Part shown: piece by piece, positions 27,339-44,085 of the stretch
Numbering within the stretch: the first letter of the stretch is position 1
How the letters are laid out: every line of letters begins with the position of its first letter
From: a virus
DNA: 64,000 nucleotides
Direction: 5' to 3' (one strand)
Virus record (IMG/VR): IMGVR_UViG_3300037479_000183
Position numbers and translations under genes: made by a program
Notes under the pieces: generated by a model
What the model was told of the DNA's origin: nothing
The model's input: only the letters and a program-made list of their open reading frames with translations
Database searches by the model: none

Positions 27339-27782
27339 TTAAGTAAAGGAATCCTCGTCTAGGTTTTCATCCGCAGAGTTTTGAAGAGTATATATAAGAG
27401 GGAGAGAGATGCGCTGGACAACTATGCGCTGTCCTGGCTTTCCTACAAATCGGACGCTTAATCCCATGTGTAGCCCCGTCCCTACCAAAACGTGGAAGAG
27501 GCTGACGTTGGTATAATATTTACCATCTGCAACCCGGGTTAGGTTTTCTAGTATTCGCCAATACCTTCTGGGCGCCTTCTCCCGCATAGCAAGTAAGGCC
27601 TCTTCGGTGTGCCACACCTCTAGCTTGGGGCTGGTTAGCCGATATAGCCGCATCAACGGGATGCCCAATTTTCTTGAAAGGTGTGTCATCTTATGTGGCC
27701 CGGGGTTTTCTGCAAAATAGGAAAGTAGCACGATGGCATCGTTTTCCTGGGGGCTGGTTCCTTTTAAGACCACAGCCCGCAC
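27339..27782 (-). CDS. Putative helix-turn-helix DNA-binding protein
   Basis: PHKMTHLSRKLGIPLMRLYRL resembles an HTH. Confidence 0.45.
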   Translation of the reverse strand: MRAVVLKGTSPQENDAIVLLSYFAENPGPHKMTHLSRKLGIPLMRLYRLTSPKLEVWHTEEALLAMREKAPRRYWRILENLTRVADGKYYTNVSLFHVLVGTGLHMGLSVRFVGKPGQRIVVQRISLPLIYTLQNSADENLDEDSFT

Positions 27783-35883: not shown

Positions 35884-36090
35884 CTAGTATATAAAGGTTC
35901 CGGCCGCGCCGGGCCCTAACGGACGTGGGCCTGCCAGGCCTATAGGCAGGGGGCCTAGGCCTGGCCGGGCCTTACATATGCGGGTTCCCGTATAGTTAAC
36001 ACAGCGCGCTCTTGACTGTTGTGGGAAGAACCCACTGTAGTATATTTCCAGAAGAGTATCTCCGTTAGGCGGGTTTCCTTTATATACTAG
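35884..36090. promoter_or_regulatory. Divergent TATA pair forming a perfect 14-bp inverted repeat
   Basis: CTAGTATATAAAGG at 35884-35897 and its exact reverse complement CCTTTATATACTAG at 36077-36090. Confidence 0.75.
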
Positions 36091-36983
36091 GCACAGAAAC
36101 GCGTATAAAACTACAATTTTGCAGAAATAACCACAAAAATCGCCCAAACGTCGTTTCCCTCGTGTTCGGAAAAATCCTGCGCGCCTGTGAAAAAATTCAT
36201 CTATAATCGCACAGAATGCCATTAGATGCGTTCCAGCTGACCAAACCACCAACATCCTAATAAGCTTCCGCCCCACAAAAATCTTTAAGGTGGATTGCCC
36301 CGACCCACGCTCTCAAAACGACTCGCTAGCCCCCCTAGGGGCGTTTTACAAATGTAAAGGGGAAAGGAAAGGGGGAAAGGCTAGGGTGTCCATTCCCTAG
36401 CGTCATAGGGGGTCGCAACCCACTTGCTTTTGTTCCACGGGCCACGCCGCCCCACCCGGCCACCGTCGGCTAGCGTCAGGCTTGAGCCTTCTTCCCTCGC
36501 CGGAAAGATGATTCCCGCGAAGCCCACTCCAAGCCCCGTTTCCACGGCTACCGTTTCTGGGCAGGCCCGGCCCCGATGATAGGTTCGGACGTGATAGGGG
36601 CATCGGTTGTAGCCTGTTTCGTTCCTGCGCTTCTGCCACGCATCCATATAGCAGGATGGACAAATCTTTGTAAGCCCATCCCGCCCGCACCTGTCGCACT
36701 TCACCAATTGCGTCATAGACTCCAATACTCGCCTGACCATATATAGTTTGTGTCGCCCAGCCGACACTTATATACCCCATCTACGAAAATCGTAGTCGCC
36801 CCACATATATAAACTTTTGCCTAGCCCGGCTCGGCCCTGCCGCCGTCAGACAGGCGGCTGACGAGCGTCAGACTTCATCTTCGTCGTCCCAATCGCCCGA
36901 TTCGTCGTAGGCATCGTAGTGGTCAGAGTCCTTCCCGCCCTTTTCCTGCGCCTTTGGGGTCATAGACCTTAATGGGGGTCAGG

Positions 36984-39671
36984 GTATATAAAGTTTTGTC
37001 CGATGGGTGAAACTACTCAAAAACGCGTAAGGGGGAAGGGGGGCGTCAGACAAACGTCCTACGCCTGTCTGTCAAACTCCTGCTCTAGTTCCTCCTTCAA
37101 ACTGGCTTGAAGTTCCGCCATCGCTCGGGATGCCTTCATTCGCGTTAGGTAGAAACCCAACTGGTCGGCCAGTTCCCCAAGACTCTTGAGTTCCGCCATC
37201 GCCCTTGCCATCGCCTCATTCATCAACGCCTCATCGTCCATATACCTCAATGGTCGTCAAAGTATATGAAGTTTTACCCCATCGGTGAAAGTTTGCGACC
37301 CAAAGGGGTTTACCACCACCCGCTAGACGTTCCACGCTTCACGGCAATCTCCGCGCTTACCGCCAAGCACCGTGCCATCCCGATGGCGTTAACCGCCACC
37401 GCCTTCTTCGCCTGCCACTCGGGGCAATCGCGCATCCCGCCCCAACCCAATTCCGCGTATTCGTCGCATATCTCGCACATAGACCCCAATAGGTCGGTGG
37501 GGTATATAATCTTTTGCCCTATGAGTGAAAGACTCCACCCGGCGCGCGTCTATATAAATCTTTGCCTGCTCGCAACAGCGGGCGCTGTGATAAACTTTAT
37601 GTAGTAGCGCAAATCGGCCAGCGGGCTGGGCTTATAAAACTTTCCCTGCCCGCCGTAGGTTCTCCTCTCTCGTTACCTGCTCTAAATGCTCTGGGTTGAC
37701 GCAGAAGGTTCGGCGGCATAGGTGGTCAAGAGTCAGGCCCGGCCTGATAGGCCCGGCTAGCAACTCATATATGAATCTATGCCCAATGCGAACCGCCCCG
37801 TTTGCCCAAATCGCGGCGTAGCCGTGTCTCTCCGCGCCGCCCCAAATCCAGCAAGGCGTAGCCAGAGAGCCGCGATAGCGGCGTATCTTCCGCCTCACTC
37901 GCTCCGGCAATTCTCGGTAGTCCATCTTTTCACCTGCTACCCCATTCGCCTCAAGGCATATAAAGATTTGCTCGATGAGTGAAAGTAACATCGATTGGCA
38001 AAACTTGATATAGTTACACAGCGCGGCGCTGGGCGGGCGTGGGGTATATAAAACTTTGCTCGTCGGCCTGTCGGCTGACGGAAGATGGAAGCGGCGTCGG
38101 ACGGGCGTCCGACTAGTGGAGAATACCCAACCGAAGCAGGTTGTCCAGAATGAGTCCCCGCGTTCCGAACAGCAACTCCAACTTCCTCTGCTGGACGTAT
38201 TGCCTGTATTGCGGAAGCGACTTCATTTCGTCGATAATCTCCTGAAGTTTCGCTTCCTCTGCCGCCGCCTTTGCCTTTGCGAATTGCTCCTCGGTTATTC
38301 CGCTCATACTACCCCATACCCATCGGGGCACATATACTTTTCCCTTCCGCGACGCCATCGCCCGCATATATAAACTTATGCGTCAAAGTCGCATTGGCCG
38401 CGTGGCTTCTGTGTTCGCCAGCAAACTTGAATTGCTCCGTTTGTATCAAAGCGCAGACTGATAGGCGCACCACAAACACAATGCCCATAGGCGCATCGCC
38501 AGCCTTGTGTGAGATACGCGCCGCATAGGTCGCATCGCATAGGTGCTAATGGCTCTGTGGGTATATAAAATTATGCTTCAAGGCGAAGGCGCTCCGGGCG
38601 CTATATAAAGTTATGCTCCCGCGCCGCTGTGAAAACTTTTATATAGAAACGCAAAACGGAAATGGGAGGAAGGATATAAAGGTTTGCCTCACAAGCCCGC
38701 CGCCTTCAACACTAAGGCGACGATTGGCCCGGCCAGCAGGCACAGAAGAAGGTATATAAAGATTTGTCTCTCAAACTCCTCGGGCGGCGCTCGGGTGAAC
38801 ACGGTTACCACCCTTCCGCGTATCGCTCGCGCCACGCCGCGAAGTCGCTATCCTCACCGTCGCCGCGCCACTCCGACGTATCGACCGCGAACAACTCGCC
38901 CGCCGGGTCGCGCACCTGCGACCCTGCGTAGTGTATCATTCCCGCCGCCGTCTTGCCCTTCGCGTCTATCACCAGCATTGGTTTCACCTACCCCTTAATG
39001 GTCGCCGTAGTATATCAACTTTTCCCCAATGAGTGAAAGTTTGATAGGCATATAAAAGTTTGCCTACCAGCCGTCGCGGGCGATACATTCGCCGCACCCA
39101 AAGGTGCGGGAAGGGTGTTTCTCGGCGTGAAGGCGGCGCTTCAACTCCTTCTTGGTTTCCGCCATCAGCCGGGCCGCGTCATCGGCGCATACGTCGCAAA
39201 GCGCCACCTTTAGAACCTCAACATCCTCCTCAATCGAGGTTTCCATCGGGTTCCTTGGCGCGATGCTTGGCGCAACCGGATTGACGTAAAGCGCCCTCAA
39301 CTCACCGCACTCCGCGCAGGTTCCGTAGCCCTTTATCACGTTCAATTCCACTTTCATCTTTTTACACCTCACCCTGCTATGGTCGTCGCGGTATATGAAG
39401 TTATGCTCCATTGGTGAAAGTAAAAAAAGGCCCGCCACCGTTCTACTTCTTCTTCGGCGGCGGCACCAACTCTCGCGCGGGCGGCGCGTTTCGCGTCCAG
39501 AACGAAACGTAGTGGTCGAACCGCGCGGCTATCTCCGCTTGCGTTCCGCCCTTCTTTTCGCACCACTCGCGCAACTCTCGAAGTCGTCTTTCGTAGGCAC
39601 TCTCTCCTATGGGGCTCACCATACCACCTCAACAACATCGAAGTATATAAAGTTTTACACAATGAGTGAAA
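36984..39671 (-). promoter_or_regulatory. Seven archaeal-type promoters, each with an upstream TTTCAC(T/C)(C/G/A)AT motif at fixed spacing
   Basis: Plus-strand AT(G/C/T)(A/G)GTGAAA at 37003, 37281, 37521, 37975, 39029, 39410 and 39662, each 19 bp from the G preceding (T/C)ATAT(A/G/C)A. Confidence 0.8.
37632..37925 (-). CDS. HNH endonuclease (HNH_3-like)
   Basis: CWIW..GY..HRFIYELLAGPI..LDHLCRRTFCVNPEHLEQVTREENLRR. Confidence 0.92.
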   Translation of the reverse strand: MDYRELPERVRRKIRRYRGSLATPCWIWGGAERHGYAAIWANGAVRIGHRFIYELLAGPIRPGLTLDHLCRRTFCVNPEHLEQVTREENLRRAGKVL

Positions 39672-39680
39672 CTACTCAAA

Positions 39681-39706
39681 AATGAAAAATGGGGGCCGAA
39701 GCCCCC
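39681..39706 (-). terminator. Hairpin terminator with a cUUCGg tetraloop
   Basis: Minus strand GGGGGC-TTCG-GCCCCC followed by ATTTTTCATTTTT, just after the stop at 39719. Confidence 0.7.
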
Positions 39707-40405
39707 TTGCCGCCCGGCCTAGCCGGTGGCCCGCTTGATGGCTTTTAGGATGGCGGCCTGCTTTGCCTTCTTGCTCGCCTTCTTTGGCAAGCCTAGCGAA
39801 GCGGGCCAAAGGCCCGACTCCTTGGCCCGCCTGCCAATCCCCGCGACGGGGACGATAGGCGCGGCGGCCTGCTCCTTCCGCCTTCCGTCCTCAACTCCGG
39901 TCGTCCGAAGGTCGTCATCGCTGATGTCGTGTTCGGCGTTGAAGTCGGGCAACTCGCCCGTCGCCTGCGGCCCGCGCCCGGCCCGGCCCTTGGGGGCCGC
40001 CTCTAGCCACGGCTTCAACTCCGGCGCGAAGGTGTCCGTTGGCTTCGGCGCTCGCTTCACGACATAGGCAATCAACTCCTTCTCCTGCTTGGTTGTCATA
40101 GACCCCAGTAGGCGTCCCAACTATAAATAGTTTTACACAGCGCGCCCTTCGCCCCGGACGGTATATAAAGATTTGCCCTATATGAACTTTTGCCCGCCCG
40201 CCGCCCGGCCCGCATATATAAACTTATGCCCAGCCCGGCCTGCCGCAAGCCTTATATAGAAGGGCAAATCGGTTTTCCGGGCCGATATATAAAGCTTTGC
40301 CCAGCCCATCCGTCCGCCCGCCGTCAGACACTCGCCGCGCCTGTGTCAGACAAACATAAGACGCAGAAGAATTAAAGGGAAGAAGGAAAAGTCGGCTTAG
40401 ACTCG

Positions 40406-41824
40406 CTACTTTCGAGTCTTTTTCGACTTGCGGGCCTTGGGCTTGCCCTTCCCGCGCTTCGGCTTCTTTTGTGCTCGCACGGCTTCGCACTTGGCGCAAC
40501 AACACCAAAGCTTAGGCCGCCTGACGTGAAGCCCCAAGACGGCGAAGCATCCTTCCGGCTTCTGTGGGTTCGGCTTCGACGGAAGGCACCACTCCACGCC
40601 GGGGCAATGGGCCGCCTGATGCTTGCGGTTTCTCGCCCGCAACTTGGTGATGCTTCCCGGTTTCTCCCGTTCAAGCACCAACCAAGACGTCGGTATCTTC
40701 CGGTCGATTGGCGAGAGGACGCCGTGAAGGGTTCCGCGCTTCCCTTCCACGTCATACGCGATGCTCCCATCCTCTAGGTTGATGGCAGATACCCTTACTT
40801 GCCCCCAGAGGTCGCGTAGTCCCTTCGGGCCGGGCGAAGGCATCCGACTTAGGGCGGCGTCATAGACGATTTGCCTTCCCGTCTTGTTTGCGTTTCGTGC
40901 GCGGTGAAGGTTCGCCACAATCCACGCCGGAACGTCGGTAAGGCGCACCTTACGCAACTCCGCCGCTATCTTAGGGTGTCCAATCCTCTCAAGCCACCCT
41001 TCGACCTTCCGCCCCGTTTGGGTCGCATCGACGCCCGCAAGCACTCGCCGGAACCTCTTGATGCTTCCCGCCGCCGCCACCTTGGGGATGGGTTGGCCCG
41101 CAAGATAGGCGAGGGGTCGCCCTTGAGGGGCGGCGATTGCGTAGATGCGTCGGTCTGCTTGCTGGCCCGCCAAGCCTTCGGCCAAGGCCGCCGCTTCTTC
41201 GGCGTCAAAGTCGCCTTCATTGTCGGCTAGGATGGCTTTGGCCCTCTCGCCCGCCGCGTCTAGGCCGCGTTCCGCCAAGTAATCGACGGTTCCATCATCG
41301 GCACTAGCGTGTATGTTGGCGGTTTCTTCCCACTCCACGCCAAGCACTTTACCGCCGTTCATCGGCACGTCAGCCGAGCACCTGACGACACTTCGACGCC
41401 CGACGCTTACCGAATGGTCACAACCGGGGCGAGAGCATTTCGTCATATCGTCCTTACTCTCTAGCCGAGAGCAACGGCTAACGACAAACGACTCCGTGCT
41501 TCGCACTTCGCGGTTAGTGTTGATGCTAACCCACTTGCCATCTACTAGCTTCCCGCCCTTCTTGGCGTCCTTTACCGCCTTCGCGTAGATGGCGGCGAAA
41601 GGCACCGTTTCATCTTTCGGGATGCGGGCCTTGGCCTGAAGCACCGTCGCCTTCCAGCCTTCGGGGCTTGGCGTGATTATCACGCGGCCCTCTCGCGCAA
41701 GGGCGGCGGCGGTTCGCGGGAACCACTCGCCCGATTTCGCTTTCGACGTAGCCGCTACCAACACAGCCACTAGCAAGCACAGCGGCCCGAGTCCTGCTAG
41801 CGCGCTTCCGATTTCTGCCGACAT
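40406..41824 (-). CDS. 472-aa basic hypothetical protein with Cys/His clusters
   Basis: Long ORF with an AGGTG RBS, upstream TATA cluster and downstream TTTCCTTCTT tract. Confidence 0.7.
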   Translation of the reverse strand: MSAEIGSALAGLGPLCLLVAVLVAATSKAKSGEWFPRTAAALAREGRVIITPSPEGWKATVLQAKARIPKDETVPFAAIYAKAVKDAKKGGKLVDGKWVSINTNREVRSTESFVVSRCSRLESKDDMTKCSRPGCDHSVSVGRRSVVRCSADVPMNGGKVLGVEWEETANIHASADDGTVDYLAERGLDAAGERAKAILADNEGDFDAEEAAALAEGLAGQQADRRIYAIAAPQGRPLAYLAGQPIPKVAAAGSIKRFRRVLAGVDATQTGRKVEGWLERIGHPKIAAELRKVRLTDVPAWIVANLHRARNANKTGRQIVYDAALSRMPSPGPKGLRDLWGQVRVSAINLEDGSIAYDVEGKRGTLHGVLSPIDRKIPTSWLVLEREKPGSITKLRARNRKHQAAHCPGVEWCLPSKPNPQKPEGCFAVLGLHVRRPKLWCCCAKCEAVRAQKKPKRGKGKPKARKSKKTRK

Positions 41825-42084
41825 ACTTAGGCACCTCTGACGACGATAGGCGGTATGAGTATAAATAGATTTGCCCGCCGCCCGACGTAGGCCCGCAGGC
41901 CGCCTTCGCCCGCGCCGATATATAAACTTCTCCCCTATATAAACTTATGCCTGCCTGCCCGTCGTCCATTTGTGAGAACAACGCTTACGAATATAAACTT
42001 TTGCCCGTCCGACACTCGCCCGCGCTGTGTCCGACACCCATCAGCCAAGCCCGGCCTGCCTGTCAGACAAATGGCGGCCCGGCC

Positions 42085-42180
42085 TGTTATATAAACTTAT
42101 GCTCTTTACATTTGTAAAGTTATATTCAAATGGTTTTTATAAAAATGTTACAATATTAATTTTACAATTGTAAAGTTGGA
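42085..42180. promoter_or_regulatory. AT-rich island with palindromes; candidate replication origin or operator cluster
   Basis: TTTACATTTGTAAA 42105-42118, TTTTTATAAAAA 42134-42145 and TTTACAATTGTAAA 42161-42174, inside GC-rich flanks. Confidence 0.5.
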
Positions 42181-43475
42181 GCGTCAGACAATCGTCAGAA
42201 TAAGCGACTTTTATAATAATCACAGAATCCGACTAACTGCGTTCCGGGATTTTACGTCAAGACTTGACGATTCGGTATTTAAACCAATCGGCGGGCCTTT
42301 TCGTCGCCGCTAGAGATGTCTGACAGTGAAAATCGTTTTTCCACAGTCTTTCGACGGTCGCCGCCAAGGGCTAGGGCTTCCCCTAGTCAGGGGCGGGCCG
42401 CCCGTTAGTCGTCGGGCGCTTCAGGCCCATTCCCGTTAGGGGGCAAATGACTCTGACGGAAGCCTTCGGCTTCTGCTGAAACAGTCCCCCGAGGGAATCC
42501 GTAGCGATGCGGATTCGGCGCTTCCGAAAGAAAACGGATTCGTCGGAATCGACCTGAAGGTAAACAAAGGTATAGGCTGGAAATGAGCCAGCCTGCCATC
42601 CCGCAAGAGAGGTGCGAAATGTCGCCCAATCTTGGCCTTGACGATTCATTTTCGTGGCTAGAGGGATTACCAGAACGCCACCATATCCCCCGGAACGGAA
42701 AGGCCCGGCCTCGGACTCGGAGGCCGCAAGCGTTCCGTTCTGAGCAGTATACCATTTTGGGGATACTGCTGGCCCAATAGTAGAGAGGCCCGGCAATACT
42801 GCCCGGCCAATGGGCCTGATTGGGGGTCAGCGGAGCATTGACCGGCCCCGCCATCGCGCAAGCCCGTAAGGGCTGGCCGGCCAATTGTAAGAGCGCCCTA
42901 TCAGGACTCGGCGGCTAGGCAGGCCGGAAGCAGGCAACCGGGCCGAGCGTTTTTTGGTGGGCAGGCGTGGGTGTTTATAAAGGCTTAGACCCCACCCTAA
43001 CGGATTCGGAAGTAAACAGGGTATTTAAACTACCCGCCCGCCTAGGCACCTCGCCGGGCCTTGCCCAACAGGGCTTGCCCGGCCTTTCCTTTTATGGCAA
43101 GCATAAATGAAATCGTCGAGGCCATCCACGCGGCTTGCCGTCAGGCGGCCATACCGGAGGCCAAAGGCGGGCTTGGCGAGGACTTGGCATACCAAGTCTT
43201 GCTTCGCTTGCTTGGGGACTTCGGCAAAGCGGCCAAAAGGCGGTATGCCGCGATGGAGTGGGAGAGGCCGATTATCGTCGGCCTTGGGTTGGAAGCCTGT
43301 ATCGGTTGAAACCGGGCTCGGCTACTAACGGACACAGCACGGTGATTTACTCTTACCGTTAGGCGGCTAAGGCCGCCAAAAGTCGCAGACTTTATGCTTA
43401 ACGATGGGCCGGGTCGGTTCTTCGTTAAGAAAGTCCCCGGTGGGGACTTAGTGCCAAAACACGGAGCGTGCGAAA

Positions 43476-43958
43476 ATGGCGAAGGAAGCGGAGAATCTGC
43501 TGGCGATGTCCAGCGGTGTAAAGCGCGTGGAAACGAAGAATGTGCGGAAGGAGGACGAGTTCGAGGCCAAGATGAAGGCCGCCGGAGTCCTTGAGGTCGG
43601 CTACCGCCGAACCAACAAGGGCAAGGAGGACAAGTCCACCGCCTATCTGACCCTCTCGCAAGAGGTGCTTCAGGAGGAGGAGGACAACGGTGGCAACGCC
43701 AACCAGCTCGTTCTGAAGGCGGTTGCGACGGTGCGGAAGGACAAGCAGGGGGACTACAAGATGTCGTCCTTCGGCTTCGGGATTTCCGGTCGCCGCAAGG
43801 ACAAGGACGAGAAGGAGTGGGTCTGGACTCGGGGAATAGTGTTGCGCCCCGAGCAGATGCGGCTCCTCATCGCCGAGGGCGGGGAAAGCGTGGCGGTCAA
43901 GAAGGTCGCCACGGACGCCGTGAAGCCCCTCAAGGCGATTCAGGCCGTCCTCGCATAG
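43476..43958 (+). CDS. First gene of the rightward unit; possible PC4/whirly-like ssDNA-binding protein
   Basis: FGFGISGRRK..WVWTRGIVLRPEQMRLLI resembles PC4-like folds; hairpin plus TTTCCTTCTT downstream. Confidence 0.4.
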   Translation: MAKEAENLLAMSSGVKRVETKNVRKEDEFEAKMKAAGVLEVGYRRTNKGKEDKSTAYLTLSQEVLQEEEDNGGNANQLVLKAVATVRKDKQGDYKMSSFGFGISGRRKDKDEKEWVWTRGIVLRPEQMRLLIAEGGESVAVKKVATDAVKPLKAIQAVLA

Positions 43959-43994
43959 ACGCGTCGGCGTCTTAACGATTTTTCCTTCTTACCT

Positions 43995-44085
43995 ATGCCT
44001 CTGGTTGTGGGTCATACCACCGTGAGGCAACCGTATGTCGGTGTATTACCAGCCCGGTGAGGGACATACCCAAGTAGACGGGCAT
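43995..44085 (+). ncRNA. Candidate structured RNA with tandem three-way junctions
   Basis: Closing helix ATGCC/GGCAT; inner helices GGTTG/CAACC and GTATGTC/GACATAC, each enclosing two short hairpins, one GTGA-capped. Confidence 0.45.

Follow-up and report, generated by a model that had tools for sequence, protein, structure and literature searches.

Several viruses place the same promoter sequence in front of many small genes. In viruses of the Sulfolobales (SIRV2 and other rudi-, lipothrix-, bicauda- and fuselloviruses), clustered genes, small and single, encode unrelated and for the most part orphan products, and a strong B recognition element (BRE) and TATA box lie within a virus-specific conserved sequence that reaches both upstream and downstream; the motif is also expected at the gene of a small regulator (Bhoobalan-Chitty et al. 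2024, PMC11065993). The tailed archaeal virus HF2, which infects haloarchaea, has seven copies of a promoter-bearing class I repeat, comprising an upstream motif α, a TATA-containing β and a γ around the start, together with a second promoter class in the genome. Experiments show these repeats to be active, and they are retained throughout the genus; sequence-specific factors encoded by the virus have been proposed, for which CxxC proteins are the named candidates (Russ, Pfeiffer and Dyall-Smith 2021, PMC8707807). Repeated promoter modules also precede many small open reading frames (ORFs), within one region of the genome, in HGTV-1 (PMC3950731 citing Sencilo et al. 2013) and in T4-type phages, as promoter early stem-loops (PeSLs; Arbiol et al. 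2010, PMC2839356), and they are proposed to regulate genes and to mediate gene shuffling; the HGTV-1 motifs have already been likened to PeSLs (PMC3950731). Here we describe seven promoters that share a 12-nt upstream box within a 64,000-nt stretch (the window) of the virus record IMGVR_UViG_3300037479_000183. The architecture is alike in kind to the Sulfolobales-virus, HF2 and HGTV-1 cases, and the sequences are unrelated. Such a layout is already published in other archaeal viruses, and the array is a clean new example of it rather than a new principle.

The window covers most of a 69-kb contig that encodes a terminase, portal, capsid, tape measure and archaeal LonB-type protease; by this gene content, the source is an uncultured tailed virus of archaea. 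The source samples are those behind JGI 3300043179 and SRR12687952. The look-alikes of the LonB protein are archaeal or viral, and the archaeal ones are spread across several phyla. Between 0.4 and 42 kb the genes occupy the minus strand, between 43 and 64 kb the plus strand, and the cumulative GC skew reverses at ∼42 kb. As the seven-promoter region heads the minus-strand arm, the shared motif, which an earlier note had described on the plus strand, is to be read as its reverse complement.

Read in this direction, the pattern TTTCACYNATNG-N3-AWA-N2-TTNATATA matches exactly seven minus-strand sites with up to three mismatches tolerated, against 0 expected, which marks the class as discrete, without a fringe of degenerate members. 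All seven sites (hereafter class A) lie on one strand within a span of 2.7 kb, and the box occurs nowhere else in the window. Viewed from the plus strand, the 10-mer ATBRGTGAAA has seven matches (37003, 37281, 37521, 37975, 39029, 39410, and 39662) against 0.87 expected. The composite activator-like motif of the earlier note is matched exactly at six sites and in none of 100 shuffles, with the site at 37975 off by one base (AT for TT); the 19-bp spacing it gave from the G to the ATG (of ATBRGTGAAA) holds in 7/7 sites, 37975 included, and the stretches 36984–37023 and 39643–39682 are, as it claimed, identical at 35/40 nt.

The seven promoters are a subclass within a larger promoter array. A 16-nt BRE+TATA matrix derived from the core promoters of the array itself, for which ∼2.7 matches of at least 11 bits are expected per shuffled window, finds 27 strong matches on the minus strand from 36806 to 42102, with the consensus GGCAWAAGTTTATATA; outside 36.8–42.1 kb nothing in the window rises above the chance level. 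All seven class-A cores score 20–23 bits. Because ∼20 further consensus promoters of the same 5-kb array have no box, the seven sites stand as a discrete class within it. The flanks of the box-less promoters are GC-rich and unconserved, and many of these promoters lack an ORF of their own and are stacked in tandem before genes, including before three class-A promoters.

Each class-A unit has the same order on the minus strand: a 12-nt box, an 8-nt BRE, an 8-nt TATA element, the stretch C..cGACGACCATT..GGggt, and an ATG. The box has the layout (a)C-TTTCAC-Y-N-AT-N-G, is asymmetric, and directly abuts the BRE in 7/7 units. The core is of recognizable archaeal form, with an 8-bp TATA element of the TTTATATA type and a purine/A-rich BRE, the element that sets promoter direction, directly upstream (class-A consensus gGcAAAAc), and the conserved stretch between the TATA box and the predicted start comprises 22 nt (C..cGACGACCATT..GG). 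The GAC-type leader that the earlier note assigned to several units is present, as a GACGACCAT-like stretch, in 4–5 of the seven.

The distances within the units suggest where transcription begins. Four units (39622, 37480, 37241, and 36963) have their ATG 22 nt (23 nt once) past the TATA box, and the other three (39357, 38978, and 37925) have it 32–35 nt past. In six units a pyrimidine-purine step falls at nt 21/22 after the TATA box, and in the seventh at nt 22/23; the step coincides with the ATG at four sites and with AGGTGA at three. Archaeal core promoters are expected to start transcription ∼22–27 bp downstream of the TATA center. With that center near −25.5, nt 22 is the expected start, and the TATA-to-start distance agrees with that mapped for HF2 promoters (PMC8707807). 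We infer that transcripts start ∼22 nt past the TATA box, which would give four leaderless messages and three that start at the 5′ edge of (G)AGGTGA, 5–7 nt before the ATG; (G)AGGTGA matches the archaeal Shine-Dalgarno sequence. The AGGT/GGGGT elements that had been taken for ribosome-binding sites fare differently in the four short units, where by distance the GAGGT/GGGGT lies upstream of the predicted start and is thus probably untranscribed promoter DNA.

Conservation is confined to the box, the core and the stretch downstream of it. Pairwise identity at the box is 0.84 in class A versus 0.31 in the box-less promoters, whereas at the BRE it is 0.67 in both groups and at the TATA element 0.85 versus 0.92. 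The first 24 nt past the TATA box are 0.49 identical in class A and 0.28 in the box-less promoters, and the flanks on either side fall to 0.27–0.31 (background level) and 0.26–0.27, respectively. The downstream stretch scores 8.7 bits in class A (leave-one-out) versus −11 bits in orphan promoters (p = 4e-5), and among the box-less gene-proximal promoters only that of ORF 39719–40099 resembles it. The seven cassette proteins, when compared with each other, have no similarity (all E > 0.1). Because the flanks are at background identity and the proteins are unrelated, the shared sequence argues for selection on a regulatory element and not for recent duplication. The combination of a strong predicted core with a conserved box and downstream stretch, repeated in one genome, is that described for shared regulatory sequences in PMC11065993. 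A possible second copy of the box downstream of the TATA element was not adopted, its resemblance being weak (1.5–3.2 bits versus 15 for the true box; p ∼0.02, uncorrected).

All seven promoters are followed, 21–34 nt past the TATA box, by an ATG that opens a minus-strand ORF of 31–97 codons (Table 1), in line with the tiny ORFs of the earlier note. Each ORF has its own promoter, as in the single-gene units of PMC11065993, and T-runs lie ahead of three. The ORFs are coding-like, with a GC content at third codon positions (GC3) of 0.64–0.83 that exceeds GC2 in all seven. Five of the proteins are acidic (isoelectric point [pI] 4.1–5.7) and that of gene A1 is basic; the A4 protein is the sole one with a recognizable family (Pfam, PHROG).

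Table 1. Class-A promoters, cassette genes and associated elements
Feature	Coordinates	Strand	Description
Class-A promoter 1	39644..39671	-	Box 39660-39671 (TTTCACTCATTG), BRE 39652-39659, TATA 39644-39651; predicted start 39622 = A of ATG, leaderless
Terminator-like element before promoter 1	39678..39706	-	GC hairpin GGGGGCTTCGGCCCCC 39691-39706, then T5 runs 39685-39689 and 39678-39682
Gene A1	39443..39622	-	59 aa, basic (pI 9.6), predicted two-helix, no family
Class-A promoter 2	39392..39419	-	Box 39408-39419, BRE 39400-39407, TATA 39392-39399
Predicted start of promoter 2	~39370	-	5′ edge of GAGGTG, 7 nt before ATG 39357; T7 run upstream 39422-39428
Gene A2	39064..39357	-	97 aa, six Cys (CxxC pairs), no homologs
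Box-less promoter directly upstream of promoter 3	TATA 39049-39056	-	
Class-A promoter 3	39011..39038	-	Box 39027-39038, BRE 39019-39026, TATA 39011-39018; predicted start ~38989 at AGGTGA, ATG 38978
Gene A3	38805..38978	-	57 aa, acidic (pI 4.5), no family
Class-A promoter 4	37957..37984	-	Box 37973-37984, BRE 37965-37972, TATA 37957-37964 (TTTATATG); predicted start ~37935 at AGGTGA, ATG 37925
Gene A4	37632..37925	-	97-aa HNH endonuclease; Pfam HNH_3 E=7e-9, phrog_826 E=5e-28
Class-A promoter 5	37503..37530	-	Box 37519-37530, BRE 37511-37518, TATA 37503-37510 (ATTATATA); ATG 37480, 23 nt past TATA, leaderless type
Gene A5	37310..37480	-	56 aa, four Cys, no family; not called by database gene callers, GC3 0.77, coding-like
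Class-A promoter 6	37263..37290	-	Box 37279-37290, BRE 37271-37278, TATA 37263-37270; ATG 37241, 22 nt past TATA, leaderless type
Gene A6	37059..37241	-	60 aa, acidic (pI 4.4), Ala/Glu/Leu-rich, helical-looking by eye, no family
T5 run before promoter 7	37019-37023		
Class-A promoter 7	36985..37012	-	Box 37001-37012, BRE 36993-37000, TATA 36985-36992; ATG 36963, 22 nt past TATA, leaderless type
Gene A7	36868..36963	-	31 aa, very acidic: 12 Asp/Glu, pI 4.1

Set beside the described systems, the array departs from each in particular features. The Sulfolobales viruses are untailed and have Thermoproteota hosts, and their motifs have other sequences, some of them inverted repeats that overlap the BRE (PMC11065993); in contrast, the asymmetric box here stays entirely upstream of the BRE. 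For the Sulfolobales genes, early timing and anti-defense activity have been demonstrated (PMC11065993), whereas the genes here are known from sequence alone. The HF2 repeats are 58 bp long, differ in sequence, and head long multi-gene early-middle transcripts rather than one-gene cassettes (PMC8707807). The modules of HGTV-1 and the PeSLs pair the promoter with an inverted repeat or stem-loop (PMC3950731, PMC2839356), but only 1/7 of the present promoters has a hairpin. The sites of Ptr2, EarA, TFB-RF1 as well as the ara-box factor likewise lie directly upstream of the BRE in fixed register to the core, but they serve cellular promoters with a weak BRE/TATA and are often multiple or palindromic (PMC5512572), whereas the present cores come close to the consensus and adjoin a single, asymmetric box. 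A TTTATATA box is typical of methanogens (PMC5512572), and its presence in the virus promoters is a hint as to the host.

The earlier note proposed a co-regulated regulon, and BRE/TATA promoters with an additional box at a fixed position before seven unrelated one-gene units agree with that proposal. As the robust part of this reading, the box is likely the site of a sequence-specific factor that gives the seven promoters common regulation. The seven sites would then be one class of promoters for the host RNA polymerase, on which a sequence-specific DNA-binding protein, viral or host, bound to the box beside transcription factor B (TFB), would set when the class fires and thereby separate it in time from the ∼20 box-less promoters.

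As to what the factor would do, we tentatively favor activation or a timing switch, and rank it above repression. The box-less promoters would be used first, on host factors alone, and a product of these promoters, or a host factor, would then assist TFB and the TATA-binding protein (TBP) onto the box promoters. The geometry points this way, with the box wholly upstream of the BRE and touching it at exact spacing in 7/7 units. Archaeal activators bind directly upstream of the BRE (PMC5512572), and a site next to the BRE, like the upstream activating sequence of a Ptr2/EarA/TFB-RF1-type activator, is present in every unit. The TATA element departs from TTTATATA in 5/7 class-A promoters versus 5/18 box-less ones (exact in 2/7 versus 13/18; p = 0.075). 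The activator role suggested by the earlier note is thus upheld in position and spacing; less favorable to it are the cores, which are near consensus and not clearly weak, and the viral precedents, which invoke repressors (PMC11065993). Several points weigh against activation. Class-A cores are just marginally weaker than the box-less ones (20.7 versus 22.9 bits, p = 0.06), with no difference in BRE strength (7.2 versus 7.8 bits, p = 0.46) and TATA scores of 13.5 versus 15.1 bits (p = 0.23), whereas TFB-RF1, EarA, as well as the ara-box factor, work on weak BREs (PMC5512572). Family and structure searches identified no transcription factor in the window, and the searches for relatives brought up no diverged one that spans the array for a comparison of conservation.

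The same core scores suit a second explanation, in which the box is an operator for an Aca-type repressor: strong immediate-early promoters would fire on host factors and would later be shut off by a small viral protein whose gene itself carries the box. We regard this as a real but lesser possibility. A1, the first gene of the class, with a basic, predicted helical product, would be the obvious candidate, and its protein would clash with TFB at the BRE and/or hold the stretch from the TATA box to the start. Conservation on both sides of the TATA box is a feature of the regulatory sequences of PMC11065993, where Aca8, which always carries the motif itself, is predicted to repress. In HF2 the class I repeats need no viral factors for activity, and mutation of the upstream α motif leaves basal activity unlowered (PMC8707807); the characterized regulators of archaeal viruses are summarized as chiefly downregulating transcription (PMC5569661). 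However, archaeal repressor sites mostly overlap the BRE/TATA or sit downstream (PMC5512572), whereas the box here is wholly upstream, occlusion would need no spacing kept to the base across all seven sites, and A1 has no detectable helix-turn-helix (HTH), ribbon-helix-helix or zinc motif.

A third reading, which takes up the recombination between repeats and the exchangeable cassettes suggested in the earlier note, is improbable: the units would be mobile modules like the PeSLs of T4, made of a promoter or of a promoter and terminator, spread by duplication and recombination and serving mainly as recombination substrates that shuffle orphan genes, with no dedicated factor. Two copies are alike at the 35/40 nt given above, including the upstream T-run, one has a hairpin terminator, and the genes are orphans within a small-gene region; the HGTV-1 motifs are read in this way, as relayed in PMC3950731, and T4-type phages provide documented PeSLs (PMC2839356). 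Yet identity drops to background right outside the box and core, and within the box fixed positions alternate with freely varying ones, which implies purifying selection on a binding site and not shared descent. Nor does each copy have a stem-loop, as PeSLs do: a hairpin with a T-run is present at one copy, T-runs alone at two, and neither at four. Indel variants did not turn up: a single further copy has readable DNA, and over 3.9 kb it is 100% identical, while a second contig encodes the same protein in the same gene order.

In TFB-DNA structures, TFB reads a BRE of 6–8 bp. That the box extends the recognition site of some other general factor of the host (a TFB or TBP paralog), rather than serving a separate regulator, is most unlikely: it does adjoin the BRE without a gap and in fixed register, and promoter selection directed by a general transcription factor is reported for a haloarchaeal heat-shock promoter (PMC2396416), but the box reaches 20 bp upstream of the TATA element, past the BRE, and no TFB or TBP gene was recognized among the ∼50 window proteins scanned.

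For a factor acting on the box, whether as activator, as we favor, or as repressor, the virus offers a few candidates. The ORFs 39443–39622 (A1) and 27339–27782, proposed earlier as HTH factors, were not confirmed as such by family or structure searches. A1 has no Pfam or PHROG match and an Atlas search was empty; its single-sequence AlphaFold model is a two-helix hairpin (predicted local distance difference test [pLDDT] 69) with no significant PDB match. Our best guess remains that A1 may be an autoregulating DNA-binding factor. ORF 27339–27782 has a sub-threshold HTH_IclR match only (E = 0.006) and an unusable model (pLDDT 42). Several small CxxC proteins of the array are further candidate regulators, by analogy with HF2 (PMC8707807) and with known archaeal-virus regulators (PMC5569661); CxxC proteins are encoded at 39064–39357, 37310–37480, 38376–38540 and 36381–36740.

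We searched for relatives of the virus and for the motif elsewhere. The terminase and a 472-aa protein found nothing in IMG/VR, either as single sequences or as a profile. Protein searches returned only four relatives of the terminase, on short contigs (2.4–7.3 kb) that do not reach the array, with a terminase from SRR11849544 62% identical, and in GTDB genomes there is one terminase, 31% identical, on a 5.3-kb contig without such promoters. The 472-aa, 174-aa, and 97-aa proteins, encoded in or adjacent to the array, are orphans in protein searches, and 50,697 phage records compared with the array by blastn gave no match. The combined box and promoter pattern has 0 matches in IMG/VR and 25 single matches in JGI metagenomes, about the chance number as estimated, and the box pattern is absent from HGTV-1; the box-less consensus has 78 single matches in IMG/VR, none in a dense array. 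Four of the JGI matches, considered as relatives, were rejected: they represent one conserved locus that looks bacterial by its ORFs (an IHF-like protein and a large secreted protease). Its conserved intergenic sequence TTTCACTAATTGAG(T/C)ATAAGTTTATATA fits the box+TATA pattern fortuitously, a warning against searches that use the motif alone.

The surrounding array has further features of its own. Box-less promoters form tandem clusters at 42095/41997/41943/41926, 40293/40222/40186/40169, and 38760/38680/38609/38569, and two pairs are just 17 bp apart, which is too close for two initiation complexes. Possible roles for these tandem promoters include stacked promoters, the production of short RNAs, or a sink for TBP/TFB. 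The gene-proximal promoters of ORF 39719–40099 and ORF 40406–41824 (40106–40136 and 41860–41875) have the variant TATTTATA; that of ORF 39719–40099 has the class-A downstream stretch (GACGCCTACTGGGGTCTATG) without a box and appears leaderless. In the region 38309–38540, database gene callers took ORF 38309–38488, which has a consensus promoter inside it; the overlapping Cys-rich ORF 38376–38540 is favored by promoter position, its ATG lying 22 nt past a TATA box, and has a low GC3 (0.47).

On the plus strand, the sole strong match to the core matrix is the BRE/TATA element GGCAAAACTTGATATA at 37997–38012 (22.7 bits, at 38005). A weaker element has its TATA box at 38638. Both elements (37997–38060 and 38630–38680) face minus-strand promoters 27–32 bp off, and such convergent promoters would yield overlapping antisense starts. 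No strong consensus BRE/TATA was recognized in the 36 kb of structural genes or in the entire plus-strand arm, implying either that transcription reads through from the array or that promoters of another class are used. The region 36000–44000, which spans the small-gene array and the strand switch, has a GC content of 54–59% versus 44–50% in the remaining window and is thus compositionally unlike the structural module. Two copies of a 17-nt palindromic motif, TTTACA(T/A)TTGTAAAGTT (42105–42121 and 42161–42177), stand 56 bp apart and bracket an AT-rich stretch where the strand switches and the GC skew has its minimum, a short way upstream of the first array promoter; the pair is a candidate operator or replication origin.

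To our knowledge, almost nothing is known of the timing of gene expression in tailed archaeal viruses outside the haloarchaea. The array provides an unusually clean, discrete promoter class and a 12-nt candidate factor site that could be used as bait for the regulator, and its value is as a well-defined test case. The cassette products, small and mostly acidic orphans with an HNH nuclease, would fit early host-takeover or anti-defense genes, and by the logic of PMC11065993 the seven orphan genes are flagged as candidates for such functions in a lineage with no cultured member. A more elaborate possibility, which we consider less likely than not, is a two-tier temporal program in which the ∼20 box-less promoters, many of them tandemly stacked and lacking genes of their own, would capture host TBP/TFB at once and a virus-made factor on the TTTCAC box would then redirect TFB to the seven. 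If true, this would be an archaeal counterpart of the early-to-middle switch of phage T4 (MotA box), built on eukaryote-like transcription machinery.

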